From: an uncultured Gammaproteobacteria bacterium
Lineage (GTDB): Bacteria > Pseudomonadota > Gammaproteobacteria > Eutrophobiales > Eutrophobiaceae
DNA: 64,000 nt
Direction of reading: 5' to 3'
NCBI GenBank assembly: GCA_963976795.1
Contig: CAXBLT010000014.1
Coordinates: forward strand, 2,314 to 66,313
Shown: in pieces, positions 26,712 through 64,000 of the stretch
Layout of the letters: each line of letters begins with the position of its first letter
Numbering within the stretch: position 1 is the stretch's first letter
The notes under the pieces: model-generated
What the model was told of the DNA's origin: nothing
Database searches by the model: none
What the model saw: only the letters and a program-made list of their open reading frames with translations
Made by a program: the position numbers and the translations under genes

Positions 26712-26798
26712 TGGTGCCGAGAAGAGGACTTGAACCTCCACGAGCATAAGCTCACTAGCACCTGAAGCTAGCGCGTCTACCAATTCCGCCACCTCGGC
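26712..26798 (-). tRNA. tRNA-Leu (anticodon CAG)
   Basis: rc reads GCCGAGGTGGCGGAATTGGTAGACGCGCTAGCTTCAGGTGCTAG...GGTTCAAGTCC...CGGCACCA; 87 nt with long variable arm, anticodon loop TTCAGGT. Confidence 0.93.
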
Positions 26799-43595: not shown

Positions 43596-44083
43596 ATGAT
43601 CGCTGTCAGGATCTTTGAGATCACCTTTCCTATCTTTGCGATAGTTGCAGCAGGCCTGTTTTACGCTAAGAAATATAGACCGGATATGGTGCTTCCCAAT
43701 CGTATGAATATGGATATATTCATACCTTGCCTGCTATTTAGTGTCTTGATCGAACGAGGTGGTATTTCTGGGCTATTTGGAGGTTTGGCGCTAGCAATTA
43801 CTTTGGTCATCCTGCTCTACAGAGGCGATTGCTGCCGTGCGCCGTTATCTTCCTTTGATACGGGAAGATGCAGAGAGCGCTTTTACGATGCTTGGGCGCG
43901 GCTATTTTGCCTGTGTTTATGACGATTTGGTCGAACTGGATATACAAATGCAATGTCTGCGATAAGCAGTTGAAAATGGCTAACCAGTCTAATGTGATTT
44001 GTCAATGGCCGACGGGGTTTTTGGGTATCGGGCCGGTGGTGGCAAGGGGCTCAAGAATGGGCGGCATATGTTGGGCTGCTTAG
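43596..44083 (+). pseudogene. decayed AEC (auxin efflux carrier / malate permease) family transporter remnant
   Basis: only ~70 N-terminal residues resemble AEC transporters; frame then breaks; remaining ~500 bp is conspicuously GC-rich (~50%) with scattered short ORFs. Confidence 0.4.
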
Positions 44084-44309
44084 GCCTGGTGTCGAGACAA
44101 CATTCCAGCGGCGGCAAGGATACTTTGTTAGGAATGGGTAAGTGCGGTAAGCCTATCTACACACGTTGTTAATTCACGGCGTGCGAACGGTGTATGGACT
44201 GCTCTATCTGGGAAATATTTTTCAGTTGGTAATTAATGGTTTCAATGATAAATCGGCGGTTCAGAGAAAGAGGAAATTGCAGCGTTTAATGAAGATCTGA
44301 ACCGTGCTC

Positions 44310-45662
44310 TTATTTAATCCATTCCAGCCCAATGATGACATCCTCTGCAGATTGAAATCGTTCGTCTGGTTCTTTCGCTAATAAACCATCTATCAATGGT
44401 TGGTATTTAGCCAAATGGGTAGGAAGATGTGGGATTGGCGCGTTTATGTGCATTGATATTAGTTGTGCTACCGATTTAGCGATGTAGGGGCGTTCGTTTG
44501 TTAGCATCTGGAAAATCATAATACCAAGACTGTATAGATCACTGCGATGATCAAAAGGCATGCCGGCACCTTGTTCTGGACTTATATAGTAGGGTGTGCC
44601 AACGATATGATTGTTGACCGTTATATCCTCCACGTCTCCCGTTAAATTTTTTGCAGCGCCAAAATCGGTGATTGTTAATGTGTCATCGGCTCTAAATAAA
44701 ATATTACCGGGCTTTATATCTCGATGAACGATATTCAATTCATGTACGGCAACTAAGCCTAGGCACATTTCACGGATGTATTCGATTGCTTTCTCTAATT
44801 CAATACCATGCTTAAGTTTTTTAGTTAAGTCACCACCAGGAAAATGTTCCATTGCAATATAAGCAAAATCTGATGCAAATGCCCGCTCATAAATAGAGAC
44901 TACATTTGGATGGTCAAGACACGATATTAACGTGTACTCTTGCATAAATCGTTTTAATGCAATGGGGTCTTCGTGGCCTTCGGTAAACATAACTTTCAAG
45001 ACAACTTCATTGTTTTCTTCTATTGGCTTGGCTAAAAATACGGTTGACATACCTCCGCGACCAATCTCTTTGAGTAGCTGATAGCCAGGAACGACAAGCC
45101 CAAATTTTTCTAATTGCTTATTCGTAGTAGAAAAATCAGCCGTCTCCCCAGAGATGTCAAAGAAATCATCCAGGTTAACATCATCTTCATCTTGAAAAAG
45201 TAAATCAGGTAATGGTGGTGTTCCAACAATTGTTGCCTCATCGACTTCTACATTACTTGTGATTAAGGTTTGTTGTTTATCTGCAAGAGAAAAAATATCA
45301 TCTAGTGTTGTTTTAATTGTGTATTCAGATATATCTTCTTTATCTATAAAATCTATTGCACCAGCTTTTAGTACGCGGACAGCAACCTTTGTATTACCTT
45401 CAGCTGTTAACATCAGAACAGGTGGCATACCAACAATTGAATTGAAATGCACCATCCAACCCAGACCATTTTCTCTTCCAAGCCCCAGGTCATAATCAAG
45501 AATGACTAGGTCAATTTCATCCCAAACAAAATCATCACTAGGTAATCTTTGACTAACAGGGTCATATTCTACGACCTCTACATCACTATATGTATTTTTT
45601 ATATAGTGAATCAATAATTTGCGGTAATCCGCCGAGTCATCAATGAGTAGTATGCGTGACAA
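44310..45662 (-). CDS. response-regulator receiver domain fused to Hanks-type Ser/Thr protein kinase (last gene of chemosensory operon)
   Basis: 450 aa; REC residues DD..D(LVILDYDLG)..T..K present; kinase GxGxxG (GRGGMSTV), HRDIKPGN, DFG, SPE motifs. Confidence 0.85.
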   Translation of the reverse strand: MSRILLIDDSADYRKLLIHYIKNTYSDVEVVEYDPVSQRLPSDDFVWDEIDLVILDYDLGLGRENGLGWMVHFNSIVGMPPVLMLTAEGNTKVAVRVLKAGAIDFIDKEDISEYTIKTTLDDIFSLADKQQTLITSNVEVDEATIVGTPPLPDLLFQDEDDVNLDDFFDISGETADFSTTNKQLEKFGLVVPGYQLLKEIGRGGMSTVFLAKPIEENNEVVLKVMFTEGHEDPIALKRFMQEYTLISCLDHPNVVSIYERAFASDFAYIAMEHFPGGDLTKKLKHGIELEKAIEYIREMCLGLVAVHELNIVHRDIKPGNILFRADDTLTITDFGAAKNLTGDVEDITVNNHIVGTPYYISPEQGAGMPFDHRSDLYSLGIMIFQMLTNERPYIAKSVAQLISMHINAPIPHLPTHLAKYQPLIDGLLAKEPDERFQSAEDVIIGLEWIK

Positions 45663-45744
45663 TAGAAGCTATCCTGGTGAGCTTATTAAATATCAGGTTA
45701 GTAAATTAATGAAATAAATAATATTATTCAACAAGATGTAGTTT

Positions 45745-48700
45745 TCAAACTAGTAAGCTGTGAACATGATCTAATAAATCATCTTCTGAAAAAGGTTTGG
45801 TCACATATATATTGACCCCAGCCGCTTCGGCTTGTTTTCTGTGTTTGTCCGTTGAGCGTGATGTTATCATAATTACAGGGATGTCTTTTGTGTTTTCAAG
45901 ACCGCGTACATGTGAGGTCAATTCCATACCATTCATTCTTGGCATTTCCATATCAACCAGCATGATATTTGGTTTTTTATTCTCGATGATTCCAACAGCT
46001 TCCAGACCATCTTTGGCTGTCCTGACATCAAAGCCTGCATCCTGGATAACCTGGGTGAGAGCACGTCTGGCACTGAGAGAATCATCGACTACTAGGGCTA
46101 CAGGCAGTGCACGATGAATATTTGAGTGGGTCAGTTCATCAGGTTTGTCTAAAATCGTAACTGGTGCTCGAATTAATTCAGGTAAATCAATAACGGGTAT
46201 GACACTACCATCGCCCAGGATAGTCGCTCCAAGCATGCCCTTGATGTTATTAATATATTTCCCCATGGACTTAATAAAAAGGTCTCGTGTATCAACTACT
46301 TCTTGTATATAAATAACATGATTCAATTCTTCATCACGGATAAGCAAGGCCGGTCTTGTCTCTCTCGTATCACCTCTTCTATCTTCGGGTAAATTTAATA
46401 AGGATTCTAGGGATTGCATTTTAAGTTTTTCGCCATCAACTTCACACATAAGGCCATGGTCAGTCTCAATAATTTGTGAATCACTTGGGTGAAGGATTTT
46501 TTCTATACCGTGATTAGATACGGCAATTATATTATTTAAGTGGCGTAATAATAAAGCGTGAGATGACATTAACGTTAATGGCATTCTTAATTCAATTAAA
46601 CACCCCTTGTTCTCTTTAGACTCGATATGAACGCTACCTTTCATTGCTAGAAGTTCAGTGTGAACGATGTCCATACCAACGCCACGGCCAGAAGTTTGTG
46701 TTGCTTTCTCTCGTGTTGAAAAACCAGGGTTTAAAATAAGTCTGTTAATCTTGTTCTCAGAAAATTGTTCATCTGGCCTTAATAAACCTCGTTTGATAGC
46801 TGTATCGATTATATCTTTTCTATCAAGACCTGAGCCATCATCCTGACATTTAACAAGAATTTGAGTGCCTTCTCTGACAAAAGTAAGTTGCAGCTTTCCT
46901 TCCGGGTCTTTTTTCAGGTGTATTCGTTGTTCACGATTTTCAATACCATGGTCTATGGCGTTTCTAAGTATATGCATCAACGGGTCTATCAACTTATTTA
47001 AAATGTCGCTATCTATAAGCGTGTCAGAGCCAATAATTTCGAGAGAGACTTCTTTCTTTGTGCTTCTACATGTTTGTCGCACAATACGCTGTAACCTAGG
47101 AGATATAGTCTTAATAGCTACCATGCGGGTGCGCATAACAATTCCCTGGATTTCATTATGTAGACGTAACTTATCGACTAATAATTCATCCAGTTCACGT
47201 AAGTCATTTGCAACCTCTTGATTTAATTCATATGAGTCATCTGCAGCTTCGACAATGCGATGAGTAACGGTATGTAGTTCGTTATATTCTTCAAGCTCTA
47301 ATGAGTCGAAAACTGTATCTTGGTCAGCACTCTGTTGATTGTTTTGAACAGCGCTTTTTACATCTACTTGAACCTCCAAGTCTGAAGCTAGATTTTTCAC
47401 GCTATTTTGGTGCTCAACAAGTCGTTGTGACTGCATTGTTGATAGTCTTACCCTTTCTTGAAGTTGAGATGTGACAATCATGGTTTCACCAAGAAGTCTT
47501 AATATTTCATCGATTAGATTAGCCGGAACGCGTAATATAGCACTGGCATCACTATCATCGTTTTCTTTTTCAATATCCTCTTCTTTGGGTTTTGCAGTGA
47601 CCGGTTCAATAGTTTCATTTTCTTCAGATTTAAGACAATCTACGCCTTCCTTTTCTAAGCGTATTGCCCAGTCCAATATACTTTGCAACACGTTTTGACT
47701 GTTTGAGGGGGCTGTTCCACGTTCTAACAAAGCTTCACTCATTTCTTCTAAACAATCTGCTGCATCCATGAAGCTAGCTGCTAAGGCAGGAGAGGGGAGG
47801 TGATTTAGATCATTGAGTGAACTCATTATGTCTTCAAGCTGATGGGTTAAGATGGCAATACCTTTTACACCAACGGTATTTGCCGCACCTTTTACTGTAT
47901 GAGCAATGCGTTGTGCTTTATGTACTTCGCTGATGTCACCACTGCCATCAATCAGGGCTTGAATTGCAGCTGAAAAACCCTCTGTCTGTCCGGGTAGTTC
48001 CTGCAATAAACCATCGAGTAATTCTTGGTTTATATCTTCCGGAAGCTCAATAGAAACATCTTCACTTTTTGCTTCTGTCTGTCTTGCTTCTTTATGAATA
48101 TCAACCTCTGAGACATAGACCGCTTTTAAGAGATTAATCAGTGCCGGTGCAACACCGGTCATTAAATTATTCGGTAATTCTTTATCTTTTACGATATCTA
48201 CAAGTGCACTGCTAAAAACATTATCTCCTGGGTTTTGTAGATAAGATAAAACACTTTGAGGCCATAAAGTAAGAAGTGACAATTGATGTTCTGTAAATTT
48301 AGCTTCGTTATTTGAAAAATAATTAATATTATTCGTGAATACAGAAGCTATTTGGTACAAGCCATCCATCTCGGCTGCCTGGCATGCACTACCAAAACGC
48401 TCGACATGAAGAGCATACTGGGATAGAGAATCAACGATTACTTCAGCCTCGGTATCTTCATTTTTTATTAATTCAATATGAGATAAGATTTCATCGCGGA
48501 TTATAGTTGCTTCTTCTTGTAGCATTTTAACAAGATCTTTACTAATGCCATGTGGTGCAGCGAGGATATCTTTTGTTTCAATCACATCATCTAATATTTC
48601 ATTGAATTCTTCCTGTAATCTTTCGTTCGTCGAGACCGTTGTTGAATTCGTAGGGGCAGCTATATTAGCTGCTTCCGGTTCAATGACCTCATTTGCTTCA

Positions 48701-49881
48701 GGAGGAGCACCCATCATCTCTTGGATAATATCTAGGTCAGCTTGTGCCATAGGGTTTGGCCATTGCTCATCTGATAGATACTCAAGAATGTTTTGAATCG
48801 CATCAGTTGAGTTTGGATTTACTAAATAATTTTTAACAAGTGACAGCCATTGCTTAATATGTTGAATATATTGTTCTAAAGATGATTTGCTATCATCTGC
48901 TATGTCAGATAAAAATTCTTTTATAAGAAAACAGACGTCCTGAAACCCAAGTAGATCCAATTCTCCTGCGGCTAGTCCGATTTCTTCAGAATTGTTTGCA
49001 ACATTGAGAATGCTGTCTTTATTATGTGGCTCTACCTCTGCGACAGAACGCTGGAGTTTATTAAATACATTAACCAGTGCGTCTGGTATGTTTGGTGAAC
49101 TATCCTTAGTTTGGACGCCAAACATCTCTAATAAAACATTAGCATCGGTTTCAGCGAGGGGTGTGGGCCATTCATCTTGTTTTAAGTTAGCAACTAATGC
49201 GGAAGCAGCGGCAGAATTGTTTGTGCTTGACAAAAATAACTCAGCTTGATTGAGCCATTCTAACACCATGTTCTTCTGTGTGTCGTTTATTCCATTATTA
49301 TCTTGTTCAAGATCGGTTATATTCTCTTGAAATAACAAACAAACATCTAGAAACCCCATTAGGTTTTCTTCGTTAAGAGAAAGTAATAACTCTTCTAACT
49401 TTTCATTTAAAAGGCCTAATTCAAGGGTTTTGTTATTTCTTATGTTGGTGATGATTTCTGAGAATAAAGTTTGAAATTTATTAGCTTCTTTACTAAGCAT
49501 GTCGTTTAAAACATTTAGATCTGCTTCTTCTAGTGATGTACTTAAATCTGAATTATTAAAGAAATTAGTGAGAGCATCTGCGGTGGAATGTGTGCTGTTT
49601 TTTAAGTGATTAGAAGCAAGGATCGGCCATCGTTTTAATAACTCAAGTTGAGTGCTGCTCAAGGTATTATTGGTTTCAATAATATCGGAATATGTTTCCT
49701 GAACTAAAAAACAAATATCCTGGAAGCCTAATCGTTTATTTTCACCTGCTGCAATTCCCAAGGCTTCGATGTTATTTAGCGCATATTGTAAAGATGCCGT
49801 ATCAATATTATCTTGGCTGGGAATAGATTGGGAAACCTGAGCAATGAATAGCTCTAGATTAGAGTTGATTTTAGAACTCAT
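45745..49881 (-). CDS. ChpA/PilL-like hybrid CheA histidine kinase: four FimL-like N-terminal repeats + Hpt + HATPase + CheW + C-terminal REC
   Basis: 1378 aa; Hpt HTVKGAANTVGV; repeated ~110-aa modules each ending W(P).P.....D...L.EM; C-terminal receiver VALVVDDS...MLVDMEMP. Confidence 0.85.
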   Translation of the reverse strand: MSSKINSNLELFIAQVSQSIPSQDNIDTASLQYALNNIEALGIAAGENKRLGFQDICFLVQETYSDIIETNNTLSSTQLELLKRWPILASNHLKNSTHSTADALTNFFNNSDLSTSLEEADLNVLNDMLSKEANKFQTLFSEIITNIRNNKTLELGLLNEKLEELLLSLNEENLMGFLDVCLLFQENITDLEQDNNGINDTQKNMVLEWLNQAELFLSSTNNSAAASALVANLKQDEWPTPLAETDANVLLEMFGVQTKDSSPNIPDALVNVFNKLQRSVAEVEPHNKDSILNVANNSEEIGLAAGELDLLGFQDVCFLIKEFLSDIADDSKSSLEQYIQHIKQWLSLVKNYLVNPNSTDAIQNILEYLSDEQWPNPMAQADLDIIQEMMGAPPEANEVIEPEAANIAAPTNSTTVSTNERLQEEFNEILDDVIETKDILAAPHGISKDLVKMLQEEATIIRDEILSHIELIKNEDTEAEVIVDSLSQYALHVERFGSACQAAEMDGLYQIASVFTNNINYFSNNEAKFTEHQLSLLTLWPQSVLSYLQNPGDNVFSSALVDIVKDKELPNNLMTGVAPALINLLKAVYVSEVDIHKEARQTEAKSEDVSIELPEDINQELLDGLLQELPGQTEGFSAAIQALIDGSGDISEVHKAQRIAHTVKGAANTVGVKGIAILTHQLEDIMSSLNDLNHLPSPALAASFMDAADCLEEMSEALLERGTAPSNSQNVLQSILDWAIRLEKEGVDCLKSEENETIEPVTAKPKEEDIEKENDDSDASAILRVPANLIDEILRLLGETMIVTSQLQERVRLSTMQSQRLVEHQNSVKNLASDLEVQVDVKSAVQNNQQSADQDTVFDSLELEEYNELHTVTHRIVEAADDSYELNQEVANDLRELDELLVDKLRLHNEIQGIVMRTRMVAIKTISPRLQRIVRQTCRSTKKEVSLEIIGSDTLIDSDILNKLIDPLMHILRNAIDHGIENREQRIHLKKDPEGKLQLTFVREGTQILVKCQDDGSGLDRKDIIDTAIKRGLLRPDEQFSENKINRLILNPGFSTREKATQTSGRGVGMDIVHTELLAMKGSVHIESKENKGCLIELRMPLTLMSSHALLLRHLNNIIAVSNHGIEKILHPSDSQIIETDHGLMCEVDGEKLKMQSLESLLNLPEDRRGDTRETRPALLIRDEELNHVIYIQEVVDTRDLFIKSMGKYINNIKGMLGATILGDGSVIPVIDLPELIRAPVTILDKPDELTHSNIHRALPVALVVDDSLSARRALTQVIQDAGFDVRTAKDGLEAVGIIENKKPNIMLVDMEMPRMNGMELTSHVRGLENTKDIPVIMITSRSTDKHRKQAEAAGVNIYVTKPFSEDDLLDHVHSLLV

Positions 49882-49935
49882 CAGAATGCACTCATACAGT
49901 GATGATAATAGTATTGAATATTAGTATATCGATTA

Positions 49936-51324
49936 TTAAATATTCATCTCATCATCAGCTAGTCTGAATACGCCGACCGATGCCACTAATTGCATGGCTT
50001 GCTCCACTAGTTCATCAGTATGTACAGTTTGATCTTGCAAATGGGCTCCTGTTTTACGAACACTATCTCGAATAACGTCTGTGCGCTCTCTCAGTTGATT
50101 ACTGGTTTTGGCTTGTGCAACAGCATGTTCTGCAATTTTTTGTACCATACTTACTAATTCAGCTGTTGTAGATTGCGTTTCTTTCATTTGTGAACCAGCA
50201 GTTTCTGCTAACTGACTACCACCGACAACCTGGGTGGTAAGCTCGTTCATTGTGTTGACTGTATTTACAGTTTCAATCTGAATATTATTCACTAACGTGC
50301 CAATTTGCGAAGTTGCTTCTCTGGCATTTTCAGCAAGGCGTTGCACTTCGTCAGCAACGACAGCAAAGCCGCGGCCGGCTTCACCGGCAGATGCTGCGTG
50401 CATGCTGGCATTAAGAGCAAGAATATGTGTTCTTTCAGAGATATTATTAATTAAGTTTACAGCAGTACTAATTTCTTGAGATCGTTCACCAAGGCGTTTA
50501 ATACGTTTTTCAGTTTCATGGATGGTGTCACGTATATTATTAATGCTATCTACAGTATCACCCACTGTACTCATAGCAGTTATGGTGGTTTTTATTGCAT
50601 CTTCGGCAGCAATATTAGATTGCTCTGCTAAACGGGCGATTCTGGACATGGTTCCTGTAGCCGATTTCAATTCTATTGCTGCTTTTTCAACTTCATCCTG
50701 TTCCTTATTAGCGAGTAACAATACATTATCAGATTGAGATTTAACCAGGTTTGACGTTTCTGCAACATCACCAGAGATTCTTGTTACTTCGTTTAATACG
50801 CTAGTTGTTTCAGAAGTCATTAAATTTAATGCATCTGCTAATGGACCAGTAATGTCTTCATTTACTTTTGCCTTTATGCCAAGGTTTTTCTGAGCCATTT
50901 GTGCAACTGTTTCTAATAGCGCCACAATGGAGTCATTTAACTGTTCATTTTCATCTTCTATGCTCATCAAAACAGAAACGCGTTCATTTAACATAGTATC
51001 AATTGATGTGCTGATATTCTCAAATTCATCTCCGCTTTTAACACCGACGCGTGCTTCTAGATCGCCTTCTGATATTTTCTCCATAATGTTCATTAATCTT
51101 TCGATAGGCTTGTAGAGAGAATTAACGAAATAAACGGTGCCGATAAAAGTAATAGTCAACATTACAAAAACACTTTTAACCCCATTATTTAAAATTTGTG
51201 TGATAGCTTCACTATGCTCTGCACTTGATATTGCGAAATACAAACTAAGGAGAATGCTCAAGTAGGCAATATTGATGAATAAGACCCCTAAAAATAATTT
51301 GTTTTTGATTTGCATCTTCATCAT
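49936..51324 (-). CDS. methyl-accepting chemotaxis protein, PilJ-position, essentially no periplasmic domain
   Basis: 462 aa; two TM helices ~20 aa apart, HAMP, MCP signalling hairpin (ALNASMHAASAGEAGRGFAVVADEVQRLAE). Confidence 0.85.
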   Translation of the reverse strand: MMKMQIKNKLFLGVLFINIAYLSILLSLYFAISSAEHSEAITQILNNGVKSVFVMLTITFIGTVYFVNSLYKPIERLMNIMEKISEGDLEARVGVKSGDEFENISTSIDTMLNERVSVLMSIEDENEQLNDSIVALLETVAQMAQKNLGIKAKVNEDITGPLADALNLMTSETTSVLNEVTRISGDVAETSNLVKSQSDNVLLLANKEQDEVEKAAIELKSATGTMSRIARLAEQSNIAAEDAIKTTITAMSTVGDTVDSINNIRDTIHETEKRIKRLGERSQEISTAVNLINNISERTHILALNASMHAASAGEAGRGFAVVADEVQRLAENAREATSQIGTLVNNIQIETVNTVNTMNELTTQVVGGSQLAETAGSQMKETQSTTAELVSMVQKIAEHAVAQAKTSNQLRERTDVIRDSVRKTGAHLQDQTVHTDELVEQAMQLVASVGVFRLADDEMNI

Positions 51325-51381
51325 GATTGTTGCTCTCAGTTGTTGATTTAAGTTACTTAGTTCTTATTGCGAATCAGTTTT

Positions 51382-51921
51382 CTAATCGGAATAATCCTTG
51401 GTCATGTTTTTAATAAATGCGTCGTAATCAATTTCAATCCATATCTCTTGTTCTAGAAAAAATGTTTCTGATATATAATCGGTAAGAATTTCAGGGGTGT
51501 CATTAGGTGTTGATGTTTTAATGAATTTCTCATTATCGATATCAATTGAGTTTGGTAGGTCATCTATATATGTGGCAAAGGCACTTTCGCCTCTATCGAT
51601 AATTAGTAATGTATCATCTTTTTTATCATCGCCAGTTTGTTCAAGTATTTTTTTTAAATCAAATACTGGTACAAGTATACCTCGTAGATTTATCAATCCT
51701 TGTATCCATGGTGGCGTGTTTGGCATGGAATAAATTATTGGTCTTTTAACCACTTCACAGATGGTGAATTTGTTGATGAGTAAATTTATTTCTCCTAGAC
51801 GAAAGCCGAATCGTAGATTTAAGGATTGACCGTCATCAACAAACCCTTGGTATGGATCAAAGTGATCTGCCTCAGACGAAATATTAACGAGTTCAGGTTC
51901 TGTCGTTTGATCGGGTGTCAA
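51382..51921 (-). CDS. CheW-like coupling protein (PilI-like)
   Basis: 179 aa CheW domain. Confidence 0.8.
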   Translation of the reverse strand: MTPDQTTEPELVNISSEADHFDPYQGFVDDGQSLNLRFGFRLGEINLLINKFTICEVVKRPIIYSMPNTPPWIQGLINLRGILVPVFDLKKILEQTGDDKKDDTLLIIDRGESAFATYIDDLPNSIDIDNEKFIKTSTPNDTPEILTDYISETFFLEQEIWIEIDYDAFIKNMTKDYSD

Positions 51922-51973
51922 TTTATATGCCTATATCAAAATCTAATCAATTTGTTAGTTAGTTGCAGCTTGA

Positions 51974-52339
51974 TTATTCATATGCCTTCAGTTGATCCAG
52001 GATTTGTTCCTTCGTGTAGGGTTTTGATACAAGGTCTTTGCCTCCTTGCATTTTGGCCCAGACGCGATCTGCTTTTTGGCGTTTGCTACTCACAAAAACA
52101 ATAGGAATTGTTTTAGTCGCACTATCATTTGTTAATGTTCTCGTTGCTTCGTAACCATCCATTTGATCCATGACGATGTCCATAAAGATAATGTCGGGTT
52201 TTTCACTTTTTGCTTTTTCAATAGCATCACTGCCATTTGATGCGGTAATGACTTCTTTTTCTGTATCACTAATGATCTTTTCAAGGTTTGATAAATCTGT
52301 TGATGAATCATCAACAATCAGAACTTTACTTATCGGCAT
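51974..52339 (-). CDS. pilH: single-domain response regulator PilH
   Basis: 121 aa; C-terminal DRVWAKMQGGKDLVSKP closely parallels P. aeruginosa PilH DKVWGKRQGARDYLTKP. Confidence 0.75.
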   Translation of the reverse strand: MPISKVLIVDDSSTDLSNLEKIISDTEKEVITASNGSDAIEKAKSEKPDIIFMDIVMDQMDGYEATRTLTNDSATKTIPIVFVSSKRQKADRVWAKMQGGKDLVSKPYTKEQILDQLKAYE

Positions 52340-52404
52340 TATTTCCTCCGGGCTAAAATGTAACTAGTAAATCTTATTAAGTTTAAATCTTATGGATAGA
52401 TAAA

Positions 52405-53205
52405 TTAAGAGACAGCACTGGCTCTTATCGGCTCATTCAAATACTGAGAAACAACTTCTTTGAATATTGTTTGACCAACGGGTTTAATTAAGTAGGTATC
52501 ACAACCGGCCAGTTTCCCTTTTATTTTATCAGCGGGTGATGAGTTTCCTGTAAGCATAATAATTGGAGTGTTTTTTGCCTTGCCTTGTTTAATGACTTTA
52601 CAAATCTCATAACCATCCATGCCAGGTAAAATAACATCGAGAAAAATTATTTGATATTCATTTGTATTAATTAATTCAAATGCTTCTTCACCAGATTCAG
52701 CAAAATCAACACGCTCCGTAAAAGGTTTTAGAGCCTGATCCATTTGTATTCTTACAGGTAAACTGTCATCAATAACAAGTGCTATAGAATGTTTTACGTC
52801 ATTGTTTTTTGATATTGGCGTCGCAGTTTGTTCTAAAATTGCAACTTCTTCTTTGACTGTAAACTCTTTAGCTGTGACCTGATCTAAAATGCTTATTGCT
52901 CTGGATGCAATTAAAGGACGTCTTACCTGATAATGTTCTGTCTTGAACTCGCGATCTTTAGAAACTAATACAGAAGGAGGATCTTTTATATCTTTGGCTT
53001 CAAGTGTATTTCGATATTTACGCCATTGAATCAAAGATAAAGGTTCATCAGCATTCACCATTAAAATTTGTGGCGAATCATTAATGTCCGTCGCCGAGTA
53101 AGCTGTATGTCTTGACTGCGAATGTTGAAAAGCGGCGTTTAAACGTTTTTCTTCAATAGATGGAATACCAATTAAGGCTACCGTTATATTGTTATCTGCA
53201 TTCAC
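52405..53205 (-). CDS. pilG: PilG-like response regulator with ~140-aa N-terminal degenerate (pseudo-)receiver extension
   Basis: C-terminal REC with PilG-like DKIKGKLAGCDTYLIKP; N-terminal half has receiver-like strand pattern but lacks the phospho-Asp. Confidence 0.6.
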   Translation of the reverse strand: MNADNNITVALIGIPSIEEKRLNAAFQHSQSRHTAYSATDINDSPQILMVNADEPLSLIQWRKYRNTLEAKDIKDPPSVLVSKDREFKTEHYQVRRPLIASRAISILDQVTAKEFTVKEEVAILEQTATPISKNNDVKHSIALVIDDSLPVRIQMDQALKPFTERVDFAESGEEAFELINTNEYQIIFLDVILPGMDGYEICKVIKQGKAKNTPIIMLTGNSSPADKIKGKLAGCDTYLIKPVGQTIFKEVVSQYLNEPIRASAVS

Positions 53206-53227
53206 GTTGTCAATTCCCTATATATTC

Positions 53228-54232
53228 TTAGGTGTTTTCGATACTTAAATAAACCAGTGTTTGATTTAACAATTGGTATGCAATTTCGCCATAAGTCATG
53301 GGGCCCGTCATACCTGGAGTTGTTTTTCCTTCTAGTTCTGAATGAAGATAATTTAAGAGACAGTTACAAGAAAAGGTCGTGCCATTTTCCAATACCGGCA
53401 GGGAAGACTGGAAGGCAGAAACATAGTCATCAAGAGGAGCGGATAATTTGTACTCAACACCACTAAATACAGGGGCATAGAAAGAAACTGTTTTTTTCTT
53501 TTCATCAATTTCCTGGAATGATACATTTATCATTGCACCAGAATAATCTGCCACGAGAGGTAGTTTGATATCTACATTAATGCCTAATAAATAATCAGCA
53601 AGATTTTGTTCTATACCATTAACGAGGCAGGAGGATGCAGAAAAACCTGTTTCAGGGAATTCAATAACATCACCACCACCTTGATTCATAATATTAACAA
53701 TTCCAATATTAGCTACTTTATTGGGTGCTAAAGTGACATGCATTGCCACAGCTTTATCTGAAGATGTTTCAGTTGTACCGCCATTAAATACAGTGGGTTT
53801 GACGCTGCCTTGGTCATCAAGGTGTATGCCGGTAACCCAGCCAGCAATAGGTTTAATAAACATCTCTTCATATTCGGGTGCATTTTGCGCATAAGAGAGA
53901 TGTAAATCACTAAATGCAGGGATTAATAATATGGTGAACCCGTCATCGGGCGAGTCTTTCGCAATATTTTTTATACTATCCGTATTATAAAATTTAACTT
54001 GGATTCGACGAGCAACGCCAGGATCAAGTTCTGAAGCATAAATCATGTCGCGAGTTGTTATACCTCCGTCAGAAGACATGAAGTAAGGGATTGAGCCGCC
54101 AATCCAGCGACCTTTTGGTAATTGTTTTAGAAGGTTTTCATCTCCGGCAAGCCATAATACCTTACCTGCTTCGATAGCTGCCTTCGCTTGATCAACGGTT
54201 AGCATTTTTGTGTGTATATCAGATGTGGACAT
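53228..54232 (-). CDS. hypothetical cytoplasmic protein, possibly FIST (N+C) sensory domain protein
   Basis: 334 aa, no TM; C-terminal PMTYGEIAYQLLNQT reminiscent of FIST_C signature; co-operonic with che genes. Confidence 0.4.
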   Translation of the reverse strand: MSTSDIHTKMLTVDQAKAAIEAGKVLWLAGDENLLKQLPKGRWIGGSIPYFMSSDGGITTRDMIYASELDPGVARRIQVKFYNTDSIKNIAKDSPDDGFTILLIPAFSDLHLSYAQNAPEYEEMFIKPIAGWVTGIHLDDQGSVKPTVFNGGTTETSSDKAVAMHVTLAPNKVANIGIVNIMNQGGGDVIEFPETGFSASSCLVNGIEQNLADYLLGINVDIKLPLVADYSGAMINVSFQEIDEKKKTVSFYAPVFSGVEYKLSAPLDDYVSAFQSSLPVLENGTTFSCNCLLNYLHSELEGKTTPGMTGPMTYGEIAYQLLNQTLVYLSIENT

Positions 54233-54244
54233 TTTAACCTACTC

Positions 54245-55798
54245 CTATGCGGCTATTAACTGATCAAGTTCAGTTCTGTGTTTGTTTTGATGTTTCACAA
54301 AATATTGCCGAAGTATTTTTGCCCCAGCAGTTCGTGATGCATCGGATGGATTATTTTCGATTGAAATTCGAATGCTTTGCAGCATCATTTTGAGTGCTAC
54401 TATGTCCGTATTTATGACCAACTCACCATTAATTAATCGTTGCCAACTTGGATGGGTCTCTGGCGGGATAGTAATTTGGTTGTTATCATTGTTGTCAGTA
54501 GGTAAGACTTGGGGTGCTATCCCATTTAACTGAAGTATTTCATTTTGTGATGAAGCTTGATGTTTAAGAAAATATTGGCGTAATATTTTTATTCCCGCCA
54601 TGCGATTAGTTTCAGACGTGTTTTTTTCAACAGATTGTCGTACTCTTTCCAACATCATCTGTAAACCAACTGTATTTGTCTGAATTTTTAACTCACCAAT
54701 AACCAGTTGTTGCCAACATGAGGCATTCTCTGACGGTAATATGACATCTGTTTTTGCAGAAGTAATGGGTATCGATACTCGAATTCCCATTTGTTGTGAT
54801 TCTGAACTTAGCCGCGCCTTATGTTTTATAAAAAATTGCCTAAGTATTTTTGCACCTGCTTGCCGAGATGACTCCGATGGGTTTCTTTCCACCGATTGGC
54901 GTACACGCTCCATCATCATTTGCAATGCAACATTTGATGTTTGAATTTGTAGTTCAGCATTAATGATTTTTTGCCAAACGGCATCATTCACACCTGGAAA
55001 AACTGAAGACTCAGATGCAAGTATGCCTATTTGTTCTTGATTTGATGCTTGAGTTGAAATGCCAGAAATTATGGCAATGTCGGCTTTGTGTTTATCTTGA
55101 TTTTTGATGAAGTATTGGCGCAATAATTTTGCAGATTTAATGCGTGAAACTTCAGAAGGGTTCTTTGCGATATCTTGACGAATACGTTGCAGCAGCATTT
55201 GTAGACCAACAGCTTTTGTCTTAATAATTTGATCGCCATTGATGATTCGTTGCCAATTATCATGTGTTTCTGGCGGAATATTAGTGTGTTCAATTAATTC
55301 AAAAGATTTCGTGTCAAAATAATCCGTAGGGCTTGACGTAGACGTGTTGGTTGCATTTGCAACATTTGATAATGCATCGGCAAGATTATCAGCTCCTGCT
55401 CCGGTACGTTCACTTACTTCACGAATCTCAGCCGCAGTAACACCAGAAATTTTCGCTGCGGCTTGGTTAGATTTTGTGTTGTTAAGGATATCGATTAAAA
55501 ATGCTTCCATCTCGTTGGTCAGTTGGGAACCTGAGGGAGCCCAACTCTTATTACTCTCTACCGTGCTAGGTGCAGGTACGTGTAAATACGTACGCATTCC
55601 GGATATTGGTAAATGGCGCAATTTAATGGTTTGAATATCGTCATTAGATTTTGAATTGCCGAAAAAGGATTTCTTCTTCTTTGAACCGTGAGCAATAGCG
55701 ATATCTATACGATTTGAAGGTCGATCCACCTCAACTGTATTTATATGCCATTCATCATCTAAATTTAATAATAGTGTAAGTATTTCTGTATCTTGCAT
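54245..55798 (-). CDS. tandem-repeat protein: N-terminal ISL3-transposase-N-like (cysteine-less) domain + four ~90-aa repeats; first gene of chemosensory operon
   Basis: 517 aa; repeats start at W182, W275, W362, W452 with consensus WQ.IINGEL.I.T..VALQMM.ERVRQSVE.NPSE.SR.AGAKILRQYFIKH; N-terminus VEVDR...IKLRHLPISGMRTYLHV mimics zf-ISL3 pattern without Cys; no DDE domain. Confidence 0.7.
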   Translation of the reverse strand: MQDTEILTLLLNLDDEWHINTVEVDRPSNRIDIAIAHGSKKKKSFFGNSKSNDDIQTIKLRHLPISGMRTYLHVPAPSTVESNKSWAPSGSQLTNEMEAFLIDILNNTKSNQAAAKISGVTAAEIREVSERTGAGADNLADALSNVANATNTSTSSPTDYFDTKSFELIEHTNIPPETHDNWQRIINGDQIIKTKAVGLQMLLQRIRQDIAKNPSEVSRIKSAKLLRQYFIKNQDKHKADIAIISGISTQASNQEQIGILASESSVFPGVNDAVWQKIINAELQIQTSNVALQMMMERVRQSVERNPSESSRQAGAKILRQFFIKHKARLSSESQQMGIRVSIPITSAKTDVILPSENASCWQQLVIGELKIQTNTVGLQMMLERVRQSVEKNTSETNRMAGIKILRQYFLKHQASSQNEILQLNGIAPQVLPTDNNDNNQITIPPETHPSWQRLINGELVINTDIVALKMMLQSIRISIENNPSDASRTAGAKILRQYFVKHQNKHRTELDQLIAA

Positions 55799-56681
55799 CT
55801 ATGCACTCCTTAGGCATATATACATCTACTCACACACTTCCGATACGTCCTTAATTTACGATAGTTTACCTGTAGATTAATTGTGAAAAATCTTATGGAA
55901 CTTGTCGCTTCCCCTGCCTTATAAAACTCGTACTAAATACCTAAACAACTATTTTCATTAAAGATATAAAGCGAAGTGTGCTCTTAAAATTTATTATTAT
56001 ATAATTCTCTGTTACGGACTTATTTGTACCATTAATTAATTTCAAAGTCACGTTTGTTGAAAATAATCATTTTCTTTCAATGGCTTAGATAAGTTTTTGA
56101 AAGGTAATTAGTATTTTGAGTATTTCTTCTAAGTACAAGTAAATCAAATAGATATTAGTGTTAACTAATGTGTTTAGTAATCCATAGTGTTTGTAGTTAG
56201 CGACACATTAATTTCTTTAATAGGGTGAGATGTGTAGTCGAATATATACCCTTAATTAGGTAGTGATTTATAAATGATGGGGCTTTTTTTAGATTACTAC
56301 AACACAGGCTCATCAAAAGAAGGAATCATATCTATGATAGAGCAACTTGAAGACAGAACTTTTCATCAATAAACAAGAGGCTTGGCAGTATTGCTCAGCA
56401 GATTTAGTAATCTGATGAATATATAATTGTTTAGTTCGATAATGATCTTGTCTCTGGAATGAGCACATATAAACAGAATGAAGATACAAGTTTCTGAACA
56501 TCCTTCTTAAAAAATATTAATTGGGAAGAAACTCCTGGCACCACCATTGAATTACACCATAGATAATAAACATTCGGTTTCAGAGTCAGGTTTTAAATCT
56601 TAAACTTGAAATACGGTGGTTATAGCTGAACTTAAATCAGCGACATCAGCTTTATGAGTGTTGTGATTAAATATTGTTAGT

Positions 56682-57680
56682 CTATTTAAATATGGATTTA
56701 AAAAAATCAGTTAAGCGCTTCTCACTCCAATACTTTGGATGAAATGGTGTGTCGCCATAAACAAACCCAACATGTCCACCTCGTTCCGTTAGTTCTAATG
56801 TGACGCTCTCTGATAAGTCATCTTCGTTTGGGAGTGCGCTCTGGTTCATGAAGGGGTCGTCTTTGCTGTGGAGTATAAGCGTAGGAGTGGTGATGTGTTT
56901 TATGAATTGTTTGCAACTGGATTTGCTGTAGTAGTCATCGACACTATCAAAATTATGTAAGGGGGCGGTGACGTTGTGGTCGAATGAGTAGAAGTTTGTC
57001 CATTCGTTTAGTCTGCTTAGATCAATGGGTGCCAGTTTGTTTTTGAATTTATCGCGTGTTTTTATAATCAGGCTGTTGATTAAATAACTTTGGTATATTC
57101 TGGCGAAACCTGTTTCCAATTCTTTAGCGCAAATGCCGAGATCGAAAGGAATTGAGATTGCCATTGCTGCGGTTAAAGGACATTTTTCGCCGAGTTCGCC
57201 CATATATTTAATCAAGGCATTGCCACCAAGAGAGATACCTACGGCTGTTATTTTTCTATTGGGGTAACGTTTAATTAATTCGTTGATAAAGAAACTGATG
57301 TCACCAGTGTCACCCGAATGATAGCTGCGATTCAATCGATTGTGCCGACCGCTGCAACCACGAAAATGCATGAGTACGCCTTGCCAGCCATTACCGATGA
57401 CAGCGTTTAAAATCAATTTCACATAATGTGAGTCTACCGAGCCTTCGAGGCCATGAAATAGGGCGACTATTGGGCCAGTTTCTTTTTTCTCAGTCCATGC
57501 AAGGTCAACGAAATCGCCATCAGCTAATTCAAACTCTTCACGAAGTAGCTTCGGAGGAGAGGGACTTTTAAATAGCCGTGGATACAGTGTTTGTAAGTGA
57601 CGATTGGAGCACCACCAAGCAGGTTTGAATTCACTGTTGATAATGTTGATTGCTGGTATCCCTTGATAGGTGTTACTTAT
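56682..57680 (-). CDS. YheT-like alpha/beta hydrolase; intact frame but no canonical start codon (ATA overlapping ygfZ stop)
   Basis: in-frame conserved N-terminus (NRHLQTLYPRLF...DGDFVDLAW...FHGLEGS) upstream of GTG at 57422 called by ORF track; catalytic GISLGGN, SKDDPF, GGHVGF present; no ATG/GTG/TTG between 57423 and in-frame stop at 57691-57693. Confidence 0.6.
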   Translation of the reverse strand: MSNTYQGIPAINIINSEFKPAWWCSNRHLQTLYPRLFKSPSPPKLLREEFELADGDFVDLAWTEKKETGPIVALFHGLEGSVDSHYVKLILNAVIGNGWQGVLMHFRGCSGRHNRLNRSYHSGDTGDISFFINELIKRYPNRKITAVGISLGGNALIKYMGELGEKCPLTAAMAISIPFDLGICAKELETGFARIYQSYLINSLIIKTRDKFKNKLAPIDLSRLNEWTNFYSFDHNVTAPLHNFDSVDDYYSKSSCKQFIKHITTPTLILHSKDDPFMNQSALPNEDDLSESVTLELTERGGHVGFVYGDTPFHPKYWSEKRLTDFFKSIFK

Positions 57681-58690
57681 GGTTCGATATCAGAAGGTAG
57701 TTCAATAATTGAGATTGCTTTATTTTCAATTAATAGCTTGTCGTTTAGTTTATCTAGATCGATTACTGCTAGCGCATAACTCAATCCATCAGGATGAGTT
57801 GCTGCATTTATGATAGTGCCTGCCTTACTATTGGACTGTTCAGAAATGAGATGTTTATCAATAGATAATGGTTGTGCGGATTGTATCAAGCTAAGACGTT
57901 TTTTTACTTCTCCGCGATAATGTAAGCGCGCGATGACTTCCTGTCCCGGATAGCATCCTTTTTGATAGCTTAAGCCTTTGAGAGCATCAAGGTTTAGCAT
58001 CTGTGGTAAGTACTGTTCTTGAGTTAATGATGTTACCCACGGCAGGCCAGCGAGGATGTCTAATAGATTCCAGATATGAATCCCTGTCATTGAGACATTA
58101 TCTTTAAAATGCGATATGTTTTTTATCAAGGCCTCAATATTGCCTGTTATAAGGTGGCGATTAGAGCCATCGGGATGACAAATAATAATTAACCCATCAA
58201 CAGCATTTACTTCTCCAGGGTTTGACGGGAGGTTACCGTTTAATGAGGCAAGATTGCTGCAATTTGGCAGTACATTGGCCAGACCAAGTAAAGGTGATGA
58301 GTCTGAGATATCATTGATCGTCACATCAGAACGCATGACAAACATCTCTAGTCTTTTTTGCACAAACTCTTTTAAATCTGTTTTGAATATCAACAGATAG
58401 GCAATTCCAGTGTTGATGACTAAAAAGTTGCTAATAACTTGCCCTTTAGGATTGCACCAAGCGGAGATTTGCGCAGCAGGTTCTTCAATAAGATTTAAAT
58501 CGTTGATGAATTGACCATGTAAAAATTCGTGCCGATCATTACCAACAACGGCTAGCATTGAAAACCCGGAGAGAGGCGTGATTAAGGGTGTCTCTGAAAC
58601 ATTGATGCCTGAGTCATTGAAGTCAATGACATCATTGTTCAGTATTGTTGCGCCCTTTTGTTCAAGAAAGGCTTGCCATGTCTCTTGCAT
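57677..58690 (-). CDS. ygfZ: folate-binding tRNA-modification protein YgfZ (GcvT-like)
   Basis: 337 aa, aminomethyltransferase-like fold, neighbour of sdhE as in E. coli. Confidence 0.8.
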   Translation of the reverse strand: MQETWQAFLEQKGATILNNDVIDFNDSGINVSETPLITPLSGFSMLAVVGNDRHEFLHGQFINDLNLIEEPAAQISAWCNPKGQVISNFLVINTGIAYLLIFKTDLKEFVQKRLEMFVMRSDVTINDISDSSPLLGLANVLPNCSNLASLNGNLPSNPGEVNAVDGLIIICHPDGSNRHLITGNIEALIKNISHFKDNVSMTGIHIWNLLDILAGLPWVTSLTQEQYLPQMLNLDALKGLSYQKGCYPGQEVIARLHYRGEVKKRLSLIQSAQPLSIDKHLISEQSNSKAGTIINAATHPDGLSYALAVIDLDKLNDKLLIENKAISIIELPSDIEP

Positions 58691-61551: not shown

Positions 61552-61932
61552 TTACAGCCCTAAATAAATCTTTAACACAGCAATTGCGGCGCTAAGCCCA
61601 GCCAGCAATGCAAGAAACTTGACAAGGATCAGACAAGCAATTTTTTGCCATTCCGATTCGACGTAATCTTCTATTACCACTTGCAGCCCTAATGCCGCAT
61701 GATAATAAAGTGAGATTATGAAAAGTAGCATGAGAACGGCATTTAATGGATTTGCTAGCCAAGTGACCGCTGTAGCGTAATCAGCACCTGTTACCGATAC
61801 CAGAGAATAGATAAACCACAAACTAAGAGGGACTAGTGCTAGCGCTGTTAGACGTTGTGACCACCAGTGATGAACACCTTCTTTAGCTGAACCTAGACCG
61901 CGAACACGTGCTAGAGGGCGTTGAAGACTCAT
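61552..61932 (-). CDS. sdhD: succinate dehydrogenase hydrophobic anchor subunit
   Basis: 126 aa, 3 TM, position. Confidence 0.85.
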   Translation of the reverse strand: MSLQRPLARVRGLGSAKEGVHHWWSQRLTALALVPLSLWFIYSLVSVTGADYATAVTWLANPLNAVLMLLFIISLYYHAALGLQVVIEDYVESEWQKIACLILVKFLALLAGLSAAIAVLKIYLGL

Positions 61933-62312
61933 ATCATGCCTCCAAGTATTAGCGTGATTATTGACAGGATGATGCTGAATGCAATAGTGATATATCCAGT
62001 CATATAAACTGTCGATATTTCCAGGCCTTTGCCAGCATCCCAGAATAAATGCCGGATGCCATTTGCGAAATGAAAGTAAAATGAAAATACAAATGCAGCA
62101 AGACTGATTTTTCCATACCAGGTCGACGCATGTATTTGTAAATTGTTGAATGCCTCTTCGCCACTAGCAAGCCCGACTAACCAACAGGTTAATAACAAAG
62201 CCCCGAGGCTAAGGAAGACACCAGTACCTCTGTGTGTAATCGATAAAACCGATGTTAATTGAGGTTTATAGACTTGCAAATGAGGTGATAACGGTCGTTT
62301 CACCGATTCCAT
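61929..62312 (-). CDS. sdhC: succinate dehydrogenase cytochrome b556 subunit
   Basis: 127 aa, 3 TM, heme-ligand His, first gene of sdhCDAB. Confidence 0.88.
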   Translation of the reverse strand: MESVKRPLSPHLQVYKPQLTSVLSITHRGTGVFLSLGALLLTCWLVGLASGEEAFNNLQIHASTWYGKISLAAFVFSFYFHFANGIRHLFWDAGKGLEISTVYMTGYITIAFSIILSIITLILGGMI

Positions 62313-63175: not shown

Positions 63176-64000
63176 CTATGAAATAAAATGTGTCCACCAT
63201 GCAATCCCTAGTTTTCTGATAGGTGTGAGACGTATATTTGAGCTTAGTACTTTGCATCCACCGTTAATAATTTCATCGCAGGTCTTGAAGGCAAGTCGAT
63301 TTAAAATCAAACCGTGTTTGAGGACAAGGCAATCATCCTTGCGTAATCCGTCATAGTGATCTTCTAACAATACTTTTAGTGTCGTTATTAACGGTGAGAA
63401 TATGAGGGACTGATTTATTGGGTTATTTTGAGCATCGAGTCTAAAATTAAGTAAATCATCTTGCTTGATAATGTTTTCTGGAATGATACAGCGTGATTCA
63501 GTGATATAGGTATTTGGTTCTTGTAAACACCGTAGGTAATGATAGACGTTACCTATAGCGCGATAATTTTGTAGAGATACGGAATCTGTTGTTCCTAGTT
63601 GAGTCGCGCATAGTTGCCATGTTTCTCCAACGGTTGAATCATATAAACTTAAGATGGTATTTATATTATCGGCTTGATCAATGAATAAGAAATTATCGAA
63701 ACTATTAATAATAGAATGGAATGATGTTGTTATACTTTGATCGAGTGTGAGAGATTCTTTTAAATACCTCGTTATTGGGTGACGGGGTTGTTGTTGGAAG
63801 AGTCGCTCGATCTCTTCTTGCCACCAGTGCAGTTTTACTCTTGCAACCCCAGGGTCTGAACACTCTTGAATAATCTCTGTAAGTTCATAGAGAAAGGCAT
63901 GTAGTCCTATAATAATAGCTTTATTTTTTTCTGCTTCAAAAAGTGTTGCATAGTAAAGATTAGAACCATCAGGAATGGCTTTATTAATACAATAATCCAG
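63176..64000 (-). CDS. squalene/phytoene synthase family protein (partial, N-terminus beyond window end)
   Basis: open minus-strand frame from window end to stop at 63176; residues YYATLF...RVKLHWWQEEIERL typical of trans-isoprenyl diphosphate synthase head-to-head family; ORF track lists only the C-terminal 64 aa. Confidence 0.55.
   Translation of the reverse strand: MDYCINKAIPDGSNLYYATLFEAEKNKAIIIGLHAFLYELTEIIQECSDPGVARVKLHWWQEEIERLFQQQPRHPITRYLKESLTLDQSITTSFHSIINSFDNFLFIDQADNINTILSLYDSTVGETWQLCATQLGTTDSVSLQNYRAIGNVYHYLRCLQEPNTYITESRCIIPENIIKQDDLLNFRLDAQNNPINQSLIFSPLITTLKVLLEDHYDGLRKDDCLVLKHGLILNRLAFKTCDEIINGGCKVLSSNIRLTPIRKLGIAWWTHFIS

Follow-up and report, generated by a model that had tools for sequence, protein, structure and literature searches.

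In Escherichia coli, infC (which encodes IF3) and pcnB are cited as the sole confirmed genes with non-canonical start codons, and in Enterococcus faecalis, expression goes up when the ATT start of ebpA is replaced by ATG (PMC4447247). With AUC as the start codon, E. coli reporters are translated at 1-2% of the AUG level and the product carries an N-terminal Met (bioRxiv 10.1101/063800). Here, we describe a gene that resembles these cases, a YheT-family hydrolase gene that follows ygfZ on the minus strand of a 64,000-nucleotide (nt) stretch of contig CAXBLT010000014.1, from an uncultured Gammaproteobacteria bacterium; this whole stretch is referred to below as the window. The hydrolase has no canonical start codon (ATG, GTG or TTG) ahead of its conserved N-terminus, and the most likely explanation, to which we give a probability of roughly 0.8, is that translation of the intact protein begins at an AUC codon (57650-57648) behind a Shine-Dalgarno (SD) sequence. 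To our knowledge, natural bacterial genes with an AUC start are very rare, and almost none has comparative support.

As in infC, pcnB and ebpA, the hydrolase has a conserved N-terminus that could only be produced from an AUH codon (H being A, C or U) located behind an SD sequence, and here as there the weak codon would be expected to throttle expression. In contrast, the codon is AUC in the hydrolase and AUU in the described genes. An autoregulation through IF3 in the style of infC is not implied, because the hydrolase has no link to the translation apparatus. On each of the sequence-level points that could be tested, constraint on the start triplet itself apart, the gene looks as a near-cognate-start gene would be expected to look, and it is best read as an addition to this known rare class.

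Translation of the minus-strand frame shows that it is open between a TGA (57692-57690), which closes it on the upstream side, and the TAG stop (56684-56682). A preliminary description of this DNA had reported a hydrolase frame lacking a canonical start over the 86 codons from an ATA (57680-57678) to GTG 57422, the ATA overlapping the TAA stop of ygfZ (57679-57677) and an HGLEGS motif lying upstream of the GTG; all of this was borne out, and the upstream in-frame stop exists, although one base away from the coordinates then given (57691-57693). Counted from the TGA rather than from the ATA, 89 codons pass before the GTG (57420-57422) without an in-frame ATG, GTG or TTG. In the long open reading frames (ORFs) of the window, canonical start triplets make up 5.7% of the in-frame codons, and the probability of a 90-codon run without any of them is ~0.005. 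The GTG is the start taken by ORF finders and corresponds to codon 77 of the coding sequence proposed here, which would run over 56682-57650 (minus strand) and comprise 322 codons from the ATC to the TAG. The upstream gene, ygfZ (57677-58690, minus strand), encodes a CAF17-like folate-binding Fe-S assembly protein that matches TIGR03317 with 101.9 bits (cut-off 49) and Pfam GCV_T, and scores 122.7 against the full-length E. coli-type equivalog PRK09559, under its cut-off of 219. The gap between the ygfZ stop and the ATC is 26 nt, within which a promoter does not fit.

No other complete gene of the window has a comparable start-less leader, and a genome-wide loosening of start-codon usage was rejected on that ground. 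The long leader at 61552-62163 is a frame overlapping the preceding gene. At the end of the window, a squalene/phytoene-synthase-like frame (63176-64000, minus strand) runs off the sequence with no ATG, GTG or TTG in its 210 visible N-terminal-side codons; it does not count as a second start-less gene because its true start lies past the window end.

The sequence identifies the gene as a complete and conserved YheT-type alpha/beta hydrolase, for which hydrolase activity is predicted. The claim that the conserved frame is complete and includes the YheT N-terminus was confirmed against the NCBIfam YheT equivalog PRK10985, whose positions 3-321 of 326 are covered at a score of 348.4 bits (cut-off 267); the alignment spans residues 19-333 of the 335-amino-acid (aa) stop-to-stop translation, which also matches Pfam Abhydrolase_1. 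The profile begins 3 residues past the ATC codon and not 13 past the ATA. The oxyanion-hole motif HGLEGS (residues 66-71; 57438-57455, minus strand) lies upstream of the GTG, and its residues H66, G67, L68, E69 and G70 are invariant across 31 homologues (alignment A2). In the same alignment, the catalytic residues Ser140 (57231-57233, in the GxSxG element GISLGG), Asp265 (56856-56858) and His293 (56772-56774), all on the minus strand, are also invariant.

An AlphaFold2 (AF2) model of the protein has an alpha/beta-hydrolase fold, with a predicted local distance difference test score (pLDDT) of 91.7 and a predicted template-modelling score (pTM) of 0.92. A fold search was used because searching solved structures by sequence had yielded nothing beyond a marginal bromoperoxidase match; the top Foldseek matches to the model were esterases and monoacylglycerol lipases (E ~1e-11). 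Ahead of codon 77, the model places strands 3-5, 36-41, 47-52 and 61-66 and the helix 17-26. Thus, judging by the model, a product started at the GTG would miss four beta-strands, one helix and the HG oxyanion motif, with much of the core sheet gone. The protein is similar to E. coli YheT/PRK10985 (UPF0017, ABHD1/ABHD3-like) in its full-length match, HG motif, Ser-Asp-His triad and fold, but differs from it in gene context (after ygfZ here; after aguB in relatives) and in its non-canonical start codon. A literature search on the function of YheT returned nothing informative.

The DNA of related loci was taken from genome and metagenome collections and from contigs encoding selected proteins, and the junctions were read codon by codon. 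Sixteen distinct lineages (the window, L001-L009, L012, L032, L036, L038, L040 and L041) have no canonical start ahead of the conserved N-terminus FKPAWW...HLQT. The relatives among them, which share 63-81% protein identity with the window, belong to uncultured marine Gammaproteobacteria, the label being 'Thiotrichaceae bacterium UBA973/UBA7357' for some. One aligned position is an Ile codon in all 16, ATC in 15 and ATT in one (L040). In the window, this putative near-cognate initiation codon is the ATC at 57648-57650 (minus strand), 30 nt downstream of the ATA, and in the alignment it stands where orthologues have ATG. The N-terminus exists in two lengths within the clade, the ATC being located 7 or 10 codons ahead of FKPAWW, and for each of them some orthologues carry ATG at exactly this codon (L076, L011, L013/L061 and L078 in the 7-codon type; L010, L020, L022, L023; Methylophagaceae/Piscirickettsiaceae-labelled outgroups in the 10-codon type).

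Of the 15 further start-less lineages, 13 have TAA four codons before the ATC, while L040 has TGA and L041 has CAA there. This in-frame TAA is formed by the first three letters of a conserved TAAGG; several relatives share an '...A TAA' arrangement at the ygfZ stop, with the in-frame TAA 4-5 codons further downstream. Among the 14 relatives keeping the upstream stop, the ATC is the first in-frame near-cognate codon past it in 13, the exception being L004, in which an AAG codon within the SD motif precedes it. In the window, CAA (57663-57665, minus strand) occupies the place of the TAA, and it is only because of this local TAA->CAA change (57665-57663), which arose independently in L041, that the window frame is open up to the ygfZ stop. 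Because most relatives have an in-frame TAA between the ygfZ stop and the ATC, the ATA at 57680 (57678-57680, minus strand) cannot be the conserved start. In addition, the AT-rich spacer of the relatives has stops in all three frames, and therefore no upstream ORF can feed into the hydrolase; frameshifting or read-through from an upstream ORF was rejected on this basis.

Ahead of the ATC, the window carries an SD-like AAGGG (57660-57664, minus strand; AAGG at 57664-57661) that is conserved among the relatives. The 10 nt between AAGG and ATC correspond to an aligned spacing of 7, and the other SD-bearing genes of the window have spacings of 5-8. Across the ATC-aligned loci, positions -15 to -11 read TAAGG, with A at -13 in 16/16 and G at -12 in 15/16, and TAAGG/AAGG is kept in 15 of the 16 AUH-start lineages, whether ygfZ or aguB lies upstream and in both length variants, which indicates that the motif is tied to the ATC rather than to the protein core. 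Of the AUH-start lineages, 15/16 have an SD match at functional spacing, compared with 5/20 of the canonical-start orthologues (Fisher p = 4e-5, uncorrected for phylogeny), while a match of at least 5 nt is found in 12/16 of the former and 0/20 of the latter (Fisher p = 1.5e-6, uncorrected for shared ancestry). This contrast is the pattern expected if a stronger SD compensates for a weak start codon.

The SD and the ATC are separated by a stretch of 9 nt (57651-57659) that is unusually conserved in the relatives, where it reads NCTTCATCA, with positions -7, -5, -3 and -2 conserved in 14-15/16; in most of them it holds an out-of-frame ATC at -4 to -2. In the window, this spacer has diverged to ATACCAGCA. 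RNA structure around the start was considered and rejected: all that RNAalifold predicted on nine junctions was a weak hairpin made up of the Ile-Ile and Trp-Trp codons, with no compensatory changes, the single-sequence fold had z = 0.0, and no Rfam family was found in the start region, the sole Rfam match of the window being a tRNA-Leu (26712-26798).

The codons between the ATC and the GTG evolve as coding sequence. On a codon alignment of the 16 lineages, with a synonymous divergence (dS) of ~1.4 and many distant pairs saturated, the Nei-Gojobori ratio of non-synonymous to synonymous divergence (dN/dS) was 0.114 from the ATC to the GTG column and 0.107 in the remainder of the gene. The most constrained part is the first 20 codons past the ATC, with a dN/dS of 0.065 and 83% amino-acid identity, and the differences in the N-terminal part, by codon position, number 1964, 1043 and 4054. 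This pattern indicates that the start-less N-terminal codons are translated, and that purifying selection acts on them as it does on the remainder of the gene.

In a neighbour-joining tree with bootstrap, L075, whose ATG lies in an ATGA overlap with aguB, nests within the window subclade (99%), indicating that ATC and ATG interchange at or beside the start site. The window subclade clusters with L076, L078, L006-8 and L038 at 92%, and L040, L009 and L012 cluster at 99%; from these groupings, it follows that the module formed by the ribosome-binding site (RBS) and the ATC is old and shared. ATC and ATG have been swapped several times, in step with the gain, loss or decay of aguAB upstream. In some relatives (L075:1071-3004, L078:1-1501, L006-L008, L011 and L015), ygfZ and the hydrolase are separated by these polyamine genes, aguA (PAD_porph agmatine deiminase) and aguB (CN_hydrolase); in others (L076:2817-3000 and L010), decay has left recognisable 3' remnants of them, and the window subclade lacks them. 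The type of hydrolase start changes with this context, being an ATGA or TAATG overlap, an ATG after a long gap, or an SD plus ATC.

Taken together, we propose that the hydrolase would sit on a transcript shared with ygfZ, that the SD-like AAGG(G) ~10 nt upstream would direct the ribosome to the AUC, and that the initiator tRNA would start translation at this near-cognate codon. The RBS-plus-AUC module would be ancestral to a clade of uncultured marine Gammaproteobacteria and would have persisted through a synonymous divergence above 1, while the upstream extension of the window frame is a by-product of the local TAA->CAA substitution. Initiation at the AUC, Met as the first residue and a low level of expression are inferences; low translation of the hydrolase is expected since AUC gives 1-2% of the AUG level in E. 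coli. The N-terminus expected from an AUC start is MNIINSEF..., and the expected N-terminal tryptic peptide is (M)NIINSEFKPAWWCSNR.

Several observations weigh against initiation at the AUC, or at least do not favour it. The RBS of the window is the most diverged of the clade, with CAAGGG in place of TAAGG and the spacer ATACCAGCA in place of NCTTCATCA, and the use of SD sequences in this genome is moderate, ~40% of genes having a 4-mer match. The basal nodes of the tree are weak (22-56% bootstrap), so that a single origin of the ATC and repeated origins fit alike. Finally, ATC is present in 17/18 sequences at the start position and in 13-15/18 at the other invariant Ile columns, which is not clearly higher; as its third position is conserved like that of other Ile codons, selection for the C is not separable from selection for any Ile codon. 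For this reason, third-position conservation was rejected as proof of selection on the triplet.

Other explanations of the start-less frame differ in how well they agree with these data. The one that survives best is a variant of initiation at the AUC and does not exclude it: ribosomes fresh from termination on the upstream gene, and not free 30S subunits, may be the ones that mainly reach the AUC. This would explain why a weak codon is tolerated, and it agrees with the upstream stop lying 12-29 nt ahead of the start in all 14 readable AUH-start loci (L012 and L040 have too little upstream sequence to be counted), as well as with the ATG found in both nested relatives with a long gap (L076, 184 nt, with an aguB remnant; L010, 391 nt). 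However, experiments in E. coli and Haloferax showed that an intergenic distance of ~20 nt almost abolishes termination-reinitiation (PMC10666635), and the window gap of 26 nt is beyond this distance; coupling is therefore only a possible contributor. Nor is the stop/start overlap or few-nucleotide gap of a coupled gene pair found here: the same hydrolase is joined to aguB in that way in L075 and L011 (ATGA) and in L078 (TAATG), whereas the window and its AUH-start relatives have the 12-29 nt gap plus an SD of their own. This conserved SD, at optimal spacing, fits ordinary recruitment of the 30S subunit, and the association with short gaps may just reflect shared ancestry. We thus regard a predominant role for coupling as unlikely, while keeping it in consideration.

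The preliminary description had offered three causes for the missing start, namely a very recent inactivating mutation, rare non-AUG initiation at the AUA, or a sequencing error. Non-AUG initiation is the one favoured by our data, at the ATC 57650-57648 and not at the AUA. Use of AUA 57680 in the window lineage, through coupling to ygfZ termination and either alone or alongside the AUC, would add 10 residues to the protein. AUA counts among the near-cognate codons, the window and its 99%-identical relatives have an open frame from this AUA onwards, and its overlap with the ygfZ stop favours termination-reinitiation; but no usable SD stands upstream of it, no orthologue has anything matching the 10 added codons (ISNTYQGIPA), and the extension is due solely to the lineage-specific TAA->CAA change. 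Moreover, the conserved SD falls within the extension, as expected of an untranslated RBS. All this makes a start at the AUA very improbable.

We give even less weight to a functional product from a downstream canonical codon such as GTG 57422, with the upstream conserved frame untranslated or vestigial. ORF finders and public annotations do call products of 229-304 aa in the clade, but the first canonical codon differs from lineage to lineage, lying +11 to +86 codons past FKPAWW, no usable SD precedes the GTG, and the codons that would be skipped hold the invariant HG oxyanion motif and four core strands and are as constrained as stated above (dN/dS 0.11; 0.065 in the first 20).

A recent G->A change that turned an ATGA overlap (hydrolase ATG, ygfZ TGA) into ATAA, leaving a fresh pseudogene, is hardly credible. 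The ATA does overlap the ygfZ TAA with an open frame behind it, and ATGA overlaps occur in relatives, but with aguB and not with ygfZ (L075 and L011); none of the orthologous junctions compared has ATGA at the ygfZ stop. In 14 of the 15 other lineages, the in-frame stop described above (13 TAA; TGA in L040) separates the ygfZ stop from the conserved N-terminus, which shows that the ancestral start was not at the ygfZ stop, and the position at which the family profile begins, 3 residues past the ATC, argues the same. The idea of a recent pseudogene was rejected, given that the frame is intact in all lineages, with a dN/dS of ~0.11 throughout, and that the start-less state is shared by 16 lineages across a dS above 1. 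Lastly, an error of sequencing or assembly, whether at the start codon or at 57678, has nothing but the oddity itself in its favour and can be dismissed, because the same 57-nt junction is found in three independent assemblies (TARA scaffold L074, which over 3.7 kb shares 99.1% identity with the window, and two Logan assemblies, L083 and L084, made from different runs), more than 15 other lineages have homologous ATC junctions on many contigs, the L001-type junction is identical in the 4 contigs fetched, and P0042 is recorded on 23 contigs (ENA, JGI, Logan).

Returning to initiation at the AUC, one could speculate that the AUC and its SD form an adaptive, clade-wide expression device and not a tolerated defect, a doubtful suggestion that we put forward tentatively. 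If it were true, a weak start discriminated against by IF3 would be paired with a newly strengthened SD, which most canonical-start orthologues do not have, and production of the hydrolase would be kept very low or dependent on conditions, with an increase, for instance, when stress or cold reduces the fidelity of initiation. On loss of the tight operon context, the codon would then return to AUG, as in L076, L010 and L075.

The non-canonical start has consequences for annotation. In a protein search, the gene calls of close relatives were truncated (229, 246, 260, 281 and 301-304 aa) with differing internal starts; some begin past the HGLEGS motif and several are without the HG oxyanion motif. 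Public calls for the clade, including those sourced from NCBI, are cut to 229-305 aa and start at the first internal ATG, GTG or TTG (P0002, P0005, P0012, P0013, P0024, P0025, P0028, P0032, P0033, P0037, P0042, P0046, P0048, P0054 and P0074), a systematic artefact that arises because the start codon is non-canonical. An exact look-up in the protein collection found neither the 322-aa product (M-start) nor the 246-aa product (GTG-start) of the window. Standard gene finders truncate such a gene or would flag it as a pseudogene, and homology-aware start calling would fix this. Beyond annotation, a single orthologue that keeps an AUC (once AUU) start together with a co-conserved RBS across at least 16 diverged lineages, and whose ATG-bearing relatives serve as built-in controls, offers a natural system for studying how near-cognate starts are maintained and how the strength of the start codon and that of the SD compensate for each other.

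One further relative departs from this arrangement. In L077 (293-346; relative P0006), the conserved start position holds ATT and the TAAGG has turned into TAAGTG, which creates a canonical GTG four codons upstream that is taken by the gene caller. This lineage may be acquiring a new canonical start.

On the other side of the hydrolase, a lower-GC block of ~12.9 kb (43817-56698) is absent from the 99%-identical scaffold L074, in which a Mem_trans (PF03547) gene, DsbB and malic enzyme come straight after the hydrolase. Apparently a strain-variable island, the block encodes a chemosensory-type cluster, comprising a REC plus Ser/Thr kinase protein (44310-45662), a CheA-like hybrid kinase with Hpt, HATPase, CheW and REC domains (45745-49881), a methyl-accepting chemotaxis protein (MCP; 49936-51324), CheW (51382-51921), a CheY-like protein (51974-52339), a further REC protein (52405-53205) and a DUF6976 protein (53228-54232). 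Its left junction lies within the last ~110 nt of the hydrolase gene (56682-56800), where identity to L074 decays gradually and the C-terminal residues of the hydrolase differ; together, these features suggest homologous recombination with a diverged allele. On its right side (~43597-43816), only the first ~220 nt of the Mem_trans gene are left, as a truncated remnant. At the island edge, adjoining the DUF6976 gene, a minus-strand gene (54245-55798) encodes a 517-aa protein without a Pfam match. No tandem repeat was found in this gene at the DNA level; its product contains four diverged repeats of ~80 residues, of the form '...W Q x x I N G E L x I x T x x V x L Q M M L x R V R Q S V E x N P S E x S R x A G A K I L R Q Y F x K H...'.

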